From a virus (lineage: Duplodnaviria > Caudoviricetes), in the IMG/VR virus record IMGVR_UViG_3300013121_000033, positions 128,001 to 192,000 of that record: DNA of 64,000 nucleotides, one strand, 5' to 3'. The notes under the pieces were generated by a model. The model was not told the origin of the DNA. It searched no databases and saw only the letters and a list, made by a program, of their open reading frames with translations. Positions 279 through 50,617 of this stretch are shown one piece after another. The translations under genes were made by a program, and so were the position numbers. Numbering within the stretch: position 1 is the first letter of the stretch; each line of letters opens with the position of its first letter.

Positions 279-328
279 GCTTCGGAAAGTCGGGCGGTGG
301 GGTTGACTCGGGTGGTACCGTGGCCCTC

Positions 329-376
329 GTGCGTTCCCGTCTCCAACAGCGTCGCTGGCCTCAGCCACCGCTCTAG
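329..376 (+). CDS. leaderless leader peptide MRSRLQQRRWPQPPL of Pro/Trp/Gln tRNA operon
   Basis: TACCGT -10 at 316-321, GTG 7 nt later; Gln/Trp/Pro-rich; 351-376 pairs with 443-469. Confidence 0.75.
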   Translation: MRSRLQQRRWPQPPL

Positions 377-37252: not shown

Positions 37253-37363
37253 TCAGGCCCCGGCGGGGTTGCGATGTCGCAGCCCGCGCCGTCGCTTTCG
37301 GCGCGCAGCAGCGTCGACAAGTTTGTCGCGGAGCGCAGCAGCGAAGGCGTCGGCGGAGGTCAC
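37253..37363 (-). CDS. leaderless leader peptide MTSADAFAAALRDKLVDAAARRKRRRGLRHRNPAGA of His/Asn/Arg/Lys tRNA operon
   Basis: TACCGT -10 at 37371-37376; codons AAA, AAG, CGC, CGA, CGG, CAT, AAC. Confidence 0.72.
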   Translation of the reverse strand: MTSADAFAAALRDKLVDAAARRKRRRGLRHRNPAGA

Positions 37364-37823
37364 GCCCGACACGGTACCGGGACAGGTGCGGCGTGTCGAC
37401 CGATTTCTCGGGGTGGTGTCGGGCGCCGCGGTTCGCGCACGCCTGCTCCGTCGCCGCCACGGCCGGGGGTGAACACGGCAACGACGGGACCGACCCGTCT
37501 CATAGATGCCACGTCTGCGACTGCGGCGGCGAGCGCAGAAAGACGGACGTCAGCGGCGGCCGGTCGGCGGGTCGCTACGGTCACGGTGACCTCGGACCCG
37601 GCTGTGAGGAACAAACGGAGCTTCGCTGCTTCGTAGCGGGGCAGCCCCTCGATGGAGGGGCGGACCGTCATCTGCTCGATCCGGCAGCCTCGATCTTGTA
37701 GACCTCGCGGAGCGGGATGCGCCACGCCTGCCGTCGCGTCACGGTCCCGTCTGCGTTGACCGACGTGATCGTCGTCTCTTGCGGGAGTGCGGAACTGGTG
37801 TTGCGGGTCATCGCCGCGTGACG

Positions 37824-40129: not shown

Positions 40130-40157
40130 GAGAACCGATCCAGCCTGCTCGACGGGA

Positions 40158-40250
40158 TCAGCGACAACGTCCGCCGCCGATCCCGGTGGTATCGGTGATA
40201 CCTCGGGGACCGGCGGTGGGGAATGTCCTGATCGTCAGCGTCGAACGCAT
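40158..40250 (-). CDS. leaderless leader peptide MRSTLTIRTFPTAGPRGITDTTGIGGGRCR of the Phe-Thr3-Arg-Asp-Gly2-Ile-Cys tRNA operon
   Basis: TAGTGT -10 at 40258-40263, ATG 7 nt later; has a codon for every downstream tRNA. Confidence 0.78.
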   Translation of the reverse strand: MRSTLTIRTFPTAGPRGITDTTGIGGGRCR

Positions 40251-40284
40251 GACAGCGACACTACGACACCCGACCGGTGAACGT

Positions 40285-47068: not shown

Positions 47069-47106
47069 GGCGCACACTGTACCCGGCTTGTTGTGGTCAC
47101 GTCAAC
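47066..47106 (-). promoter_or_regulatory. MDND promoter cassette copy 11
   Basis: GTTGACGTGACCACAAC...TACAGT. Confidence 0.85.
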
Positions 47107-47113
47107 ATTGTTG

Positions 47114-47155
47114 TGCGGGTGGAGGGAGTCGAACCCTCACGCCTTCCGGCGTCGA
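47114..47155 (-). pseudogene. 3' half of a tRNA-Leu-like class II tRNA
   Basis: V-arm ACGCCGGAAGGCGT, T arm GAGGGTTCGACTCCCTC, CACCCGC-A. Confidence 0.75.
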
Positions 47156-47583
47156 CTGGCGTTTCGCTTGTCATTCCACTCTCGCTTCGCCCGGCTACAG
47201 ATGTCGCAGCAGCAGCGCCGCTTCTGCCACGCGTACATCGTGCCGTGGGCGAACCCCTTGTCGATCCCCCTGAACGGGCTCGCCTTGCCGAGATTGGTCT
47301 TTCTGTTGTTCTCCGCTGGGGTCAACAACTGATAGTTGTCGATCCGATCGTCCATCGGGTCATCGTTGACGTGGTCGACGTGCTCGTCGGGGGCCAGCGT
47401 TCGCCCGAGATGCTGTGTCATCTGCCAGCGGGCGTAGGACATGCTGGTCCTGCGACCGTTTGCCAAGTGGATGACGACCTGCCGTCGTGGTCGGCTGCCG
47501 CCCGGACGCACAACGTACGGACCGTAAACCTTTGTGATCGCCACATCGAACGGATTGTGCATTGGGATGGCGAGTTTACTCAC
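47137..47583 (-). CDS. HNH homing endonuclease
   Basis: LGRTLAPDEHVDHVNDDPMDDRIDNYQLLTPAENNRK. Confidence 0.9.
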   Translation of the reverse strand: MSKLAIPMHNPFDVAITKVYGPYVVRPGGSRPRRQVVIHLANGRRTSMSYARWQMTQHLGRTLAPDEHVDHVNDDPMDDRIDNYQLLTPAENNRKTNLGKASPFRGIDKGFAHGTMYAWQKRRCCCDICSRAKREWNDKRNASRRRKA

Positions 47584-47640
47584 GGCGTGTCTGCCAGCTT
47601 TACAGGCTGCCCCACCTCTCCGAACGGTGGCGCGCTCCCC
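47563..47640 (-). ncRNA. non-canonical tRNA-Tyr(GTA)-like structure
   Basis: CAGC-CTGTAAA-GCTG hairpin flanked by further hairpins; no TTCGA loop. Confidence 0.4.
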
Positions 47641-47687
47641 GGTTCCGGGACCGGAAGGCGCGGCTGAATGCTCGTGCGCTCCGGTCC

Positions 47688-47726
47688 CTACGGAAGTAGG
47701 CGGCGGCGATACAAGCGTCGGGTCAC
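47688..47726 (-). CDS. leaderless leader peptide MTRRLYRRRLLP of Tyr/Leu tRNA locus
   Basis: TAGAGT -10 at 47735-47740; rare TTG, TAT, CTA, CTT codons; hairpin follows. Confidence 0.62.
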   Translation of the reverse strand: MTRRLYRRRLLP

Positions 47727-47825
47727 GGCAGAGAACTCTACTCGTCGAGGTCGCCGGTGTCGACGGGGTTGAGTTCGTCGGCGTGTTCCTGACAGAGGTC
47801 TAATCGAGACATGACCATGGTTCGT

Positions 47826-48280: not shown

Positions 48281-48718
48281 ATGGCGTACAAGCAGGCATG
48301 CAAGAAGCAGTCGCTCCGGTTCTACGCGGCCCTCGGGATCGTCCCCGGCTACCCGGGTGGTGCGGGCGAGAGCATGCGACGCGATCCATGGTGGACGGAG
48401 GGGATCGTGGCGGAGGAGTGGAACGAGGCCGCCGCCGAGTCCGCCGCGACGTTCCGTGTGTACCCGCCGTCAGTGGTCGTGCAGGTGGCGACGGTCGGCT
48501 ACCAGATCGAGGGTGACGGTCAACGGGCGGAACAGGTGGTGACGTTGACCGGAACGTTGAACCCTCACTGGGGTGACGACCAGGAGGCGTGGCGTGCCGC
48601 GGTCCTGGACGTCGTTCAGCGGCTCGGTGACCGGTTCGGGCAGGAGACAGTCCAGGTGAACTTCGAAGAGGTCGAGGTCGTCTACTACCAGCGGCACCCG
48701 GCAGCAGTGACGGTGTGA
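48281..48718 (+). CDS. hypothetical protein
   Basis: TATGGT -10 then ATG; GIVPGY...GTLNP...FGQETVQV. Confidence 0.75.
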   Translation: MAYKQACKKQSLRFYAALGIVPGYPGGAGESMRRDPWWTEGIVAEEWNEAAAESAATFRVYPPSVVVQVATVGYQIEGDGQRAEQVVTLTGTLNPHWGDDQEAWRAAVLDVVQRLGDRFGQETVQVNFEEVEVVYYQRHPAAVTV

Positions 48719-48719
48719 G

Positions 48720-49337
48720 ATGGGATGCGAGCATTCGCTGCTGGTGAACGGCATCTGCCGGGATTGCGAACCGGACGAACCCGGGCCTCACCAGCGGGGA
48801 CGGATCGTCGTCAATGACCGCCACGTCCACTACATCGACCGTGACGGTCCGGGCTGCTACTACTGCCGACGAGACGCCACGTCGCTGACGTTCGACCACG
48901 TCGTCCCTCGCGCCGTGTTCCGTGCTGGCCTCGCCCCGATCCCTGCCGGGCGGCTCAACAAGGTGCTGGCATGCCGGAAGTGCCAGAAAGACAAGGGCGC
49001 TCGACTCGATCTCGATTGGGACCCGCGGTGGTACGACCATGGCGGCCTGTACCGGCCGACACCCGAGGACCGGTTCGTTCGAGGCGTCCCCGACGACCTG
49101 CGCATCCTGCTCCCGTTCTCGAACGGGCCGCACAGTGTGCGCGCCTTCCGGGTCCTCTACCGCGACACCCTGGACTCTGAGGGCGGATGGAGTGGGGCTC
49201 GAACCCACACGGACGCTGCGAACGCCCCAACCGTTTTCGAGACGGCGGCCGGTAGTCCATCACTCGGCTTATCCATCCAGGCGGAGGGGGCGAGGATCGA
49301 ACTCGCAGTGAACTCCACAGAGCCCACACCCGGGTAG
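48720..49337 (+). CDS. HNH endonuclease (3' end antisense to two tRNA-Ser)
   Basis: CYYC...TFDHVVPR...NKVLACRKCQKDKG. Confidence 0.8.
   Translation: MGCEHSLLVNGICRDCEPDEPGPHQRGRIVVNDRHVHYIDRDGPGCYYCRRDATSLTFDHVVPRAVFRAGLAPIPAGRLNKVLACRKCQKDKGARLDLDWDPRWYDHGGLYRPTPEDRFVRGVPDDLRILLPFSNGPHSVRAFRVLYRDTLDSEGGWSGARTHTDAANAPTVFETAAGSPSLGLSIQAEGARIELAVNSTEPTPG
49184..49278 (-). tRNA. tRNA-Ser(CGA)
   Basis: GGA acceptor, long V arm, G73. Confidence 0.92.
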
Positions 49338-49373
49338 CAACCGGGCTGCCTTGCCAGCCGTAGCGACCCCTCC
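49282..49373 (-). tRNA. tRNA-Ser(GCT)
   Basis: loop TTGCTAC, long V arm, G73. Confidence 0.92.
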
Positions 49374-49406
49374 GAGAACTTGCGGGGTCGCGCGTGACGT
49401 CGCCGT

Positions 49407-49454
49407 CTAGCTCGACCCCTCGGGGGAACTCGATGACAGCGACGAACGGATCAC
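49407..49454 (-). CDS. leaderless leader peptide MIRSSLSSSSPEGSS of tRNA-Ser operon
   Basis: TATCGT -10 at 49462-49467; 8 of 15 codons Ser. Confidence 0.8.
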   Translation of the reverse strand: MIRSSLSSSSPEGSS

Positions 49455-49494
49455 GGCCGGAACGATACGCCCACCGTCCCGGCCGTGTCCACGA

Positions 49495-50061
49495 CTATTC
49501 GTCGGCGCCCCACACGCGGTTGCGGGCCTTCTTGAGGAGGCGGAGCAACGCCTGGACCGACTGGCGGTCCGACAGGTTCGCCCACTGGTCCCGGTAGTAG
49601 AGACGGCCAGGCTGTTCGAGGAACGCGACGAGCGCTTCGCCGTACGCCCGGTCGATCCACCTCTGATCTTCGGACGAGTCCTCGGACAGTTCCATGATCT
49701 TGATGACGGCGTTCCGGAACGCGGCTTGACCGACGGTGAACCCGGACGCGGCGAGCCACGTCTTGTAGTCGGATGCGGTGGTGAACCCACCGCGCGGCCT
49801 CTCACCGGGCGCTCTCTCTGCGGGCGAAGGCATCGACTCGCGGAGAGCGACGACCTCGTCGATGATGGCTTGCTCGACGAGCGCGGCGTGGCCGATGTCG
49901 CGGATGAACCGGCCGACCTCGGTGAGTGTCTGGTCGTTGCCGAGCCACTGTCGGATCAGAGCGGGTCCGTCGTCGGGGTTGCCGACGCCGATGGACACCT
50001 CGCCCTTGTCCCACGCGACGTTGATGCGGCCGTCGTCGGCCATGACGTGTTCTCGGGGCAT
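49495..50061 (-). CDS. hypothetical protein
   Basis: AAGGAGG RBS; C-terminal LKKARNRVWGADE. Confidence 0.75.
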   Translation of the reverse strand: MPREHVMADDGRINVAWDKGEVSIGVGNPDDGPALIRQWLGNDQTLTEVGRFIRDIGHAALVEQAIIDEVVALRESMPSPAERAPGERPRGGFTTASDYKTWLAASGFTVGQAAFRNAVIKIMELSEDSSEDQRWIDRAYGEALVAFLEQPGRLYYRDQWANLSDRQSVQALLRLLKKARNRVWGADE

Positions 50062-50094
50062 CTCGCCCTCCTTCTATGTGTGTGGCCGCCTATC

Positions 50095-50253
50095 TCAGGC
50101 GGCGCTGGTGTCGGAGGATAGACGCCGGGGGTACGCCACCTCCCGAACCAACGGACCTGGCCGAGGGGGCGGGCCGCCGTCAGTGGGGATCACGTCCCAC
50201 CGTTTCGTCTTAGGGGCCGGAGTCGTTTCGACGAACTCGATCCACTTCGCCAT
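50095..50253 (-). pseudogene. apparently frameshifted small phage gene (MAKWIEF...KTKRWDV / LGQVRWFGRWR)
   Basis: AGGAG RBS; coding-like sequence changes frame in a C run near 50165. Confidence 0.45.
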
Positions 50254-50335
50254 CTACCGCTCCTGTGAGGGTTCATCGGGGAGCACCACCCGGAAAGGGT
50301 TATGTTGGGTAACACGAGACGTGGTGGGGTAGGAG

Positions 50336-50617
50336 GTGCGTATGGCACCGATGAGCCACCGGCGAACCGAACGAGGGCGGTTCCTCTACGCGGCGCGAGT
50401 CCGGAAAGCGAACACGTTGACGGACGCTGCGATCGCCGCGTGCGGCGGTGACCCCGTGTGCGCCGCTGAGGTGATCGCCGCGTGGGAGGTCGACGTCGAG
50501 TGGGCTGACCTCGCTGGGCGGGCCGGAGTGAACGCCCCGTCTCCGATCACGGTGACGATGGTGCGGCATCGGGTCGAGGACCGCGCCCGCCGTGCCCGCT
50601 GCCAACGCCGGGGCTGA
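50336..50617 (+). CDS. hypothetical protein
   Basis: ARVRKA...WADLAGRAGVNAPS. Confidence 0.6.
   Translation: MRMAPMSHRRTERGRFLYAARVRKANTLTDAAIAACGGDPVCAAEVIAAWEVDVEWADLAGRAGVNAPSPITVTMVRHRVEDRARRARCQRRG

Follow-up and report, generated by a model that had tools for sequence, protein, structure and literature searches.

A putative leaderless serine-decoding sensor ahead of two tRNA-Ser genes in an uncultured jumbo phage

The stretch of DNA analysed here (the window, 64,000 nucleotides (nt) in length) covers bases 128001-192000 of IMGVR_UViG_3300013121_000033, a 225,159-bp IMG/VR virus record rated complete, and its minus strand carries two adjacent tRNA-Ser genes preceded by a 121-nt intergenic spacer that holds a serine-rich open reading frame (ORF), a copy of the 5' end of the first tRNA and a short segment complementary to both copies. 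The best explanation for this arrangement, held tentatively and on the strength of RNA folding models, is a dedicated promoter, a leaderless serine sensor and a switch in which the decoy copy, the complementary spacer segment and the tRNA acceptor strand compete for pairing. That the ORF is a real leaderless decoding sensor appears probable from its sequence, and this part is held with greater confidence because it belongs both to the favoured explanation and to a rival one in which the sensor acts through a different output. That it works through the decoy/spacer/acceptor switch in particular is plausible but unproven, and the modelling brings it at most close to being probable.

In the proposed mechanism, the 121-nt spacer would hold a promoter dedicated to the two tRNA-Ser genes, from which the transcript would start at G49454, and the RNA, beginning with GUG, would be translated without a Shine-Dalgarno sequence in an actinobacterial host, with the 15-codon ORF serving as a serine-decoding sensor. 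If the RNA is untranslated, or if the ribosome quickly arrives at the stop codon, the decoy would be held in a lock hairpin or lie under the ribosome, and the spacer segment GCGACCCC would pair with nt 4-11 of the emerging tRNA-Ser(GCU), well ahead of synthesis of the 3' acceptor strand. In this OFF state, the first tRNA would be prevented from folding into a substrate for RNase P. If Ser-tRNA is short, the ribosome would stall on Ser codons within positions 4-9 of the ORF and melt the lock, the decoy, being a copy of the tRNA 5' end, would capture the spacer segment, and the tRNA would fold. The state of Ser decoding would in this way bear on the maturation or amount of the tRNA.

Anatomy of the tRNA-Ser leader

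The first gene, tRNA-Ser(GCT), lies at 49282..49373 on the minus strand and is a type II tRNA with the acceptor stem GGAGGGG/CCCCUCC and discriminator base G49282. It is followed after a gap of 3 nt (CCT in DNA, CCU in RNA) by tRNA-Ser(CGA) at 49184..49278 on the same strand, which is recognized by an Rfam tRNA match of 35.3 bits and by its fold; the ARAGORN call for this gene is 3 nt off from the Rfam register. CCA is encoded by neither gene, as on the minus strand the discriminator is followed by CCU (49279-49281) in the first and by CCC (49181-49183) in the second; given this and the 3-nt gap between the tRNAs, the 3' ends must be trimmed and CCA added. On the other side, the 121-nt spacer separates tRNA-Ser(GCT) from a gene on the minus strand encoding a 188-amino acid (aa) protein of unknown function (49495..50061), which has a GC content at third codon positions (GC3) of 0.87.

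Within this spacer, the predicted leaderless 15-codon ORF MIRSSLSSSSPEGSS, closed by TAG, is located at 49407..49454 on the minus strand, with GTG at 49454 rather than ATG as its start, no Shine-Dalgarno sequence ahead of it and its end 33 nt ahead of tRNA-Ser(GCT). Its codons are GTG ATC CGT TCG TCG CTG TCA TCG AGT TCC CCC GAG GGG TCG AGC TAG, and the eight Ser codons start at 49445, 49442, 49436, 49433, 49430, 49427, 49415 and 49412. An earlier note on this DNA had counted these Ser codons as four TCG and one each of TCA, TCC, AGT and AGC, placed ahead of both tRNA-Ser genes, and they read as it stated. Six of the 14 codons are read by the two downstream tRNA-Ser genes (empirical P 0.0018), and at least eight Ser in 14 codons are found in 3.9e-4 of all six-frame windows and in 0.9% of random 121-nt segments. 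The ORF also forms the end of an open off-frame, 132 codons long, that belongs to the upstream 188-aa gene.

The decoy, the 9-mer GAGGGGTCG, is found at 49413..49421 on the minus strand, where it spans codons 12-14 (GAG GGG TCG) of the ORF, and it is identical to nt 2-10 of tRNA-Ser(GCT), so that the second copy sits at the 5' end of the tRNA gene (49364-49372). The spacer segment (G)CGACCCC at 49384..49391, also on the minus strand, is able to base-pair with the decoy as well as with the tRNA 5' strand. Both copies of the 9-mer, as well as the ability of CGACCCC (49384-49390) to pair with either of them, had been pointed out in the earlier note and were located again here. A further element is a lock hairpin seen in minimum free energy (MFE) structures, whose 5' arm GUCGCUGUCA (49435..49444, minus strand) lies inside codons 4-7 and whose 3' arm (49398..49407, minus strand) runs from the last base of TAG to 9 nt past the stop.

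The 9-mer GAGGGGTCG has 6 occurrences in 450 kb, counting both strands. Taking a 20-nt target and the 121 nt preceding it, a direct repeat of at least 9 nt is present at 3.7% of genomic positions, and such a repeat together with an intervening complement of at least 7 nt at 0.10%. The spacer does not appear to be a member of a repeat family, as blastn-short against the genome gave only chance words.

GUUCUC is seen directly ahead of both tRNA-Ser(GCT) (49374-49380) and tRNA-Phe (40130-40136) on the minus strand, and in each case the segment before GUUCUC complements the tRNA 5' strand, CGACCCC matching nt 4-10 of the Ser tRNA and CUGGAUC matching nt 1-7 of the Phe tRNA.

Promoter geometry and predicted leaderless start

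The predicted tRNA-Ser promoter has the layout TGGACA-18-TATCGT-7-GTG, in which the -35-like hexamer TGGACA is at 49486..49491 and the -10-like hexamer TATCGT (of the form TANNNT) is at 49462..49467, both on the minus strand, so that 18 nt separate the two hexamers and 7 nt separate the -10 from the GTG. This leaderless geometry is common to the phage's other promoters. A single sigma-70-like site is present in the 3 kb around the locus (0.2 expected), and the 225-kb genome, with a GC content of 67%, has only 17 such sites, 14 of which show ATG or GTG 6-8 nt past the -10. TANNNT hexamers are themselves scarce, with 281 on both strands of the genome against the approximately 2000 predicted from base composition; a -10-like box is therefore informative in this phage.

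The tRNA complement of the phage consists of 26 genes in 8 heads, where a head is a cluster or a single tRNA gene with its own upstream region. The 200 nt upstream of these 8 heads contain five TANNNT boxes, TATCGT being the sole one ahead of the tRNA-Ser head, and in 5/5 a gap of exactly 7 nt leads from the box to an ATG or GTG (RTG); as RTG occurs at this 7-nt gap after only 20 of the 281 TANNNT hexamers genome-wide, the binomial P is 1.8e-6. The promoter class at the tRNA heads can be described as a GAAA-type upstream element, a -35-like GNNGACA and a -10 of TACCGT, TAGTGT or TATCGT, with ATG or GTG exactly 7 nt after the -10. In tRNA-Met, a -10-like box is placed 7 nt ahead of the tRNA's own 5' end. 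Given the 5/5 geometry, the five short ORFs that begin at these RTG codons are plausibly translated as leaderless ORFs, and the tRNA-Ser transcript probably starts at G49454, giving an RNA that begins with GUG.

A search for consensus promoters (TTGACA, 16-19 nt, TANNNT) found none, the promoter types of the phage being TTGACG with TAGGGT or the TACCGT class. Most of the 14 RTG-linked promoter sites belong to a cassette, GTTGACGTGACCACAAC - TAGGGT - 6-8 nt - ATGGACAACGAC, which is present in about 25 copies genome-wide and gives unrelated genes the N-terminus MDND without a Shine-Dalgarno sequence.

A strong inverted repeat (49448..49490, minus strand) spans the tRNA-Ser promoter and the GTG, the latter lying in its 3' arm, and is part of a structure whose MFE is -63.9 kcal/mol (z = -3.6). 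When the 188-aa gene is read through, the repeat folds in the RNA as a 19-bp hairpin positioned 4 nt past the stop of that gene; in a transcript from the tRNA-Ser promoter itself, this large hairpin would lie upstream of the start, and the GTG would thus not be hidden. The tRNA-His promoter (37355-37395) is embedded in an inverted repeat on the minus strand in the same way as that of tRNA-Ser (49448-49490), both repeats running from GACACG in the -35 region to CGTG(A/T)(T/C)C at the transcript start. A role as operators bound by a dimeric regulator, or as terminators that insulate against read-through, is possible for these inverted repeats.

Codon matching in the sibling leaders

Five leader ORFs were defined by the promoter rule alone, after which the codons read by the downstream cluster were counted under standard wobble rules. 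The null consisted of random open windows of equal length in all six frames. Three siblings of the Ser leader are in the window: a 30-codon ORF in the arrangement TAGTGT-7-ATG (40158..40263, minus strand) before tRNA-Phe/Thr x3/Arg/Asp/Gly, a 36-codon ORF in the arrangement TACCGT-7-GTG (37253..37376, minus strand) before tRNA-His (followed by Asn/Arg/Lys/Lys/Arg), and the 15-codon ORF MRSRLQQRRWPQPPL, again TACCGT-7-GTG (316..376, plus strand), before tRNA-Pro/Trp/Gln. The remaining leader precedes a Gln/Glu/Glu cluster.

In the Phe leader, the tRNAs of its own cluster read 11/29 codons (empirical P 0.0153); the corresponding values are 12/35 for the His leader (P 0.127) and 4/18 for the Gln/Glu/Glu leader (P 0.0245), and in the Pro/Trp/Gln leader 5/14 codons and 7/14 amino acids are cognate (P 0.0087). 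Together with the Ser leader, the combined match of the five leaders to their own clusters has a Fisher P of 7.4e-6. The leader-by-cluster codon matrix is diagonal, with off-diagonal cells mostly zero, and out of the 120 possible leader-to-cluster permutations the real one scores best. A short ORF written in codons of its own tRNAs precedes 5/8 tRNA heads. The signal persists when the ORFs are chosen blind to the promoter, by taking every ATG/GTG ORF of at least 10 codons in the upstream 200 nt with a Sidak correction: across the 8 heads the combined P is ~3e-3, and that of Ser is 0.005. As a negative control, the small coding sequences (CDSs) before the tRNAs of Streptomyces phage Daubenski were analyzed, and these displayed no codon match (permutation P 0.94).

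In further comparing the five leaders, the stop codon is 28-38 nt before the tRNA in four, and three of these (Gln, His, Ser) have a hairpin at or over the stop; none of the hairpins at or after the stop codons of the leaders is followed by a U tract.

Masked-ribosome folding of the Ser leader

Folding was carried out on an RNA that begins at G49454 and runs through tRNA-Ser(GCT), either free or with the footprint of a ribosome masked and the remainder refolded. In the free RNA, codons 4-7 (GUCGCUGUCA) pair with the stop region (49444..49435 with 49407..49398), which locks the decoy in a larger hairpin; the spacer segment pairs with tRNA nt 4-11 at a probability of 0.72, and the acceptor stem forms at 0.28. 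Across free-RNA folds, this 8-bp trap helix has a probability of 0.71-0.98. In folding of the nascent chain, it reaches 1.0 once tRNA nt 11 emerges, approximately 80 nt before the 3' acceptor strand exists.

A different set of pairings is obtained when the ribosome is placed early in the ORF. With the A site masked on Ser codon 4, 5, 7, 8 or 9, the decoy:spacer helix has a probability of 0.70-1.0 and the trap one of at most 0.011, and over codons 4-9 the acceptor stem rises to 0.97-0.99, and the MFE structure is a type II cloverleaf of textbook form. When the A site is instead placed at Ser10, Ser14, Ser15 or the stop, the trap is back at 0.44-0.82 and the acceptor stem at 0.18-0.55. This behaviour is stable across four footprint sizes and at both 30 and 37 C.

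The earlier note had proposed that a ribosome reaching the stop lets the spacer segment trap the tRNA acceptor strand and that stalling on early Ser codons lets the decoy capture it; both are reproduced in silico, the second for codons 4-9. Its switch reading is supported by these in silico tests, with one amendment: in the untranslated RNA the decoy is not free but sits in the lock hairpin, an element absent from that note, and in the models it is the stalled ribosome that opens this hairpin. When a uniform switch score is applied to the leaders, the Gln leader is also found to switch (null 1/267, compared to 8/234 for Ser).

Considering the five leaders together, a phage-wide circuit read by ribosomes can be imagined, in which each of five tRNA clusters would have a leaderless, codon-matched sensor and in which the output for Ser, and apparently for Gln, would be the folding of the first tRNA; as an account of the whole set this is possible yet doubtful. 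The same degree of doubt attaches to its corollary, that folding would be set by a three-way competition of decoy, spacer segment and real acceptor strand, with no termination involved.

Weighing of alternative explanations

A number of results weigh against the switch. The hypothesis was formed on the same sequence that was used to test it, and the full switch is only moderately rare, as it was given by 18/509 random genomic leaders and 13/403 shuffles (~3.5%). Pairing of the acceptor strand is frequent in random leaders in silico, at 25-58% overall and 33-40% for Ser. Three of the five leaders (Pro, His, Phe) show no acceptor switch, and for tRNA-Phe the models give trapping wherever the ribosome is placed, an outcome that is impossible in vivo if that tRNA works; tertiary folding of the tRNA, or RNase P, may therefore override such predicted traps. 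The switch-competent codons TCG, TCG, TCA, TCG and AGT mostly report on the second tRNA (CGA), whereas the trap hits the first (GCU); RNase P could still free the second, tRNA-Ser(CGA). No terminator-like site, that is, no hairpin plus U tract, is present in the spacer on the minus strand (49374..49494). Relatives carrying the locus were not found by megablast, blastn and tblastn against INPHARED, nor in IMG/VR (188-aa protein, tRNA 29-mer and MDND box), in the protein database or in JGI metagenome contigs (tRNA 23-mer and 188-aa protein). As a general mechanism for all five leaders, the acceptor trap was set aside as unsupported, Pro, His and Phe being the leaders that do not switch.

One alternative is an ordinary tRNA-operon leader, in which the promoter is real, the GTG, the Ser-rich frame and the repeat with its complement have arisen by chance in a GC-rich structured RNA, and the leader is removed by RNase P. 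This account is considered unlikely, though it draws on the frequency of acceptor trapping and of full switches among random leaders and on the absence of conservation support in the databases searched. It would also explain the Ser run as coming from an NTC-rich stretch (TTC GTC GCT GTC ATC GAG TTC) read in the +1 frame, a usual source of TCN codons; in single-amino-acid windows this run has a P of 0.014 among 18 cognate tests, and non-cognate runs are equally rare, such as Cys before His (0.002) and Glu before Met (0.010). What a chance leader does not readily account for is the placement of RTG exactly 7 nt past 5/5 of the -10 boxes at tRNA heads, the diagonal codon matrix and its survival under promoter-blind choice of ORFs, and the succession of 9-mer, 7-mer and 9-mer, found at 0.1% of positions. 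A first reading along similar lines, by which the ORF had arisen by chance as an off-frame of a GC-rich gene and had its start hidden within a hairpin, was dropped in view of the sibling leaders and of how the promoter is laid out.

What is known of the promoter and of the codon match also underlies a second alternative, a real sensor with another output, in which the stalled ribosome alters read-through (through a hairpin lacking a U tract, or through access of Rho to the naked leader) or the stability of the precursor, such that both tRNAs are affected. A sensor of this kind would account for its mostly TCG codons being read by the second tRNA and for the three siblings without an acceptor switch, and the placement of stop codons and hairpins ahead of the tRNAs also speaks for it; yet no terminator-like site is present on the minus strand of the spacer, and of the tails that come after the leader helices, GCAAGUUCUC and UACGGCUGG, the more U-containing one (GCAAGUUCUC) trails the helix of the stalled state and not that of the free state, which is the wrong polarity for a classical attenuator. 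Such an output is judged improbable, more so than a chance leader. Far less probable than either is that the upstream 9-mer is a functionless partial copy of the tRNA-Ser(GCT) 5' end left by recombination or homing-endonuclease repair. HNH genes do flank and invade tRNA arrays in the window, and a gapped alignment lengthens the match (GAGGGGTC..GCT..ACGGC), but the extended local alignment is not significant against shuffles (P 0.09), no other part of the tRNA is repeated, and a relic of this sort leaves the Ser codons and the complementary spacer segment between the copies unexplained. The decoy/spacer/acceptor switch driven by a leaderless serine sensor is retained as the best, if tentative, explanation.

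Relation to known systems and significance

Leader-peptide attenuators control amino-acid operons and pheST, with trpL, hisL, leuL, thrL, ilvL, pheL (PMC3082878) and pheM as examples. As in these systems, the phage unit has a short ORF in the 5' leader that is rich in codons of the sensed amino acid, the position of the ribosome selects between exclusive RNA pairings (here in silico), and slow decoding is proposed to turn the downstream genes on. The phage unit differs in that its targets are tRNAs and not biosynthetic enzymes or a synthetase, in that its ORF lacks a Shine-Dalgarno sequence and is predicted to lie at the 5' end of the transcript, and in the absence of a hairpin-plus-U-tract terminator; its predicted output is instead the folding of an acceptor stem, for which a decoy that copies the 5' end of the tRNA competes.

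A closer parallel may be drawn with mycobacteria, in which leaderless polycysteine short ORFs, the 'Cys ribulon', act as stalling sensors (Canestrari et al., bioRxiv 10.1101/834739), and for which the leaderless rule has been described (Shell et al. 2015, PMC4633059). Both settings are of the high-GC actinobacterial type, both have an ORF containing a run of cognate codons, which in mycobacteria begins with the first transcribed base and in the phage is predicted to do so from promoter geometry only, and in both several independent units would answer one class of signal, with a stalled ribosome blocking a duplex that silences the downstream gene (in the phage this step is modelled). The mycobacterial duplex hides the ribosome-binding site of a protein gene, whereas in the phage it is a tRNA whose 5' acceptor strand would be hidden; the tRNA genes 3' of the phage leader offer no ribosome-binding site for a duplex to cover. 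The phage signal would further differ in being the decoding of codons read by the regulated tRNAs themselves, and the units are encoded by a phage.

T-box riboswitches likewise make expression depend on how much of a specific charged tRNA is available, but they bind uncharged tRNA directly and need no translation, and the spacer matches no T-box: in a search of 48500..50500 for T-box or other Rfam families (E up to 1), only the two tRNAs were matched. Searches of the literature yielded no publication in which tRNA genes are controlled by a leader peptide.

Phage tRNA genes are usually seen as constitutive add-ons, and they have been linked to escape from host defences that cleave tRNAs; this link gives more weight to how phage tRNA expression is set. 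If the mechanism proposed for the Ser leader is true, it would amount to demand-driven feedback on tRNA supply, exerted through an ORF that reads the codons of the tRNAs behind it, and a phage could raise its own tRNAs when those of the host are depleted, for example by anticodon nucleases. Leader-peptide attenuation would be extended to tRNA targets and to a leaderless actinobacterial format, with a new output in which the folding of a tRNA is decided by a decoy of its own 5' end, and translation-coupled control would be seen for the first time in the maturation of a tRNA. The Ser unit is also compact, at ~175 nt.

Genome context and neighbouring features

The terminase of the phage is 38-42% identical to Gordonia phage terminases, and it is therefore regarded as an uncultured jumbo phage without a close sequenced relative; its host is most likely an actinobacterium. 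Searches with the terminase and capsid returned only distant relatives or one 5.5-kb fragment, IMGVR_UViG_3300006092_001496, whose capsid protein is 96% identical to that of the phage, and a close relative therefore exists in sample 3300006092. In the window, the MDND cassettes are located at 277, 8483, 9975, 24193, 26358, 28887, 31593, 34908, 38701, 39091, 43363, 47105, 47827, 59013 and 62327.

Converging with the tRNA-Ser genes is an HNH endonuclease gene on the plus strand (48720-49337), whose open frame runs 157 nt antisense over both tRNA genes before its stop; its Pfam matches are HNH_5 at residues 46-65 and, more weakly, HNH at residues 46-95. A second HNH gene appears to split a tRNA-Tyr-like gene on the minus strand (47080-47800), in which an anticodon arm, CAGC-CTGTAAA-GCTG at ~47606..47592, is followed by a 148-aa HNH ORF (47583..47137), by an intact T arm GAGGGTTCGACTCCCTC (47138..47122) that overlaps the HNH stop by 2 nt, and then by an acceptor-like 3' strand. 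Upstream of this split gene lies a further unit of the leaderless type, TCGACA-17-TAGAGT-8-GTG, which opens MTRRLYRRRLLP.

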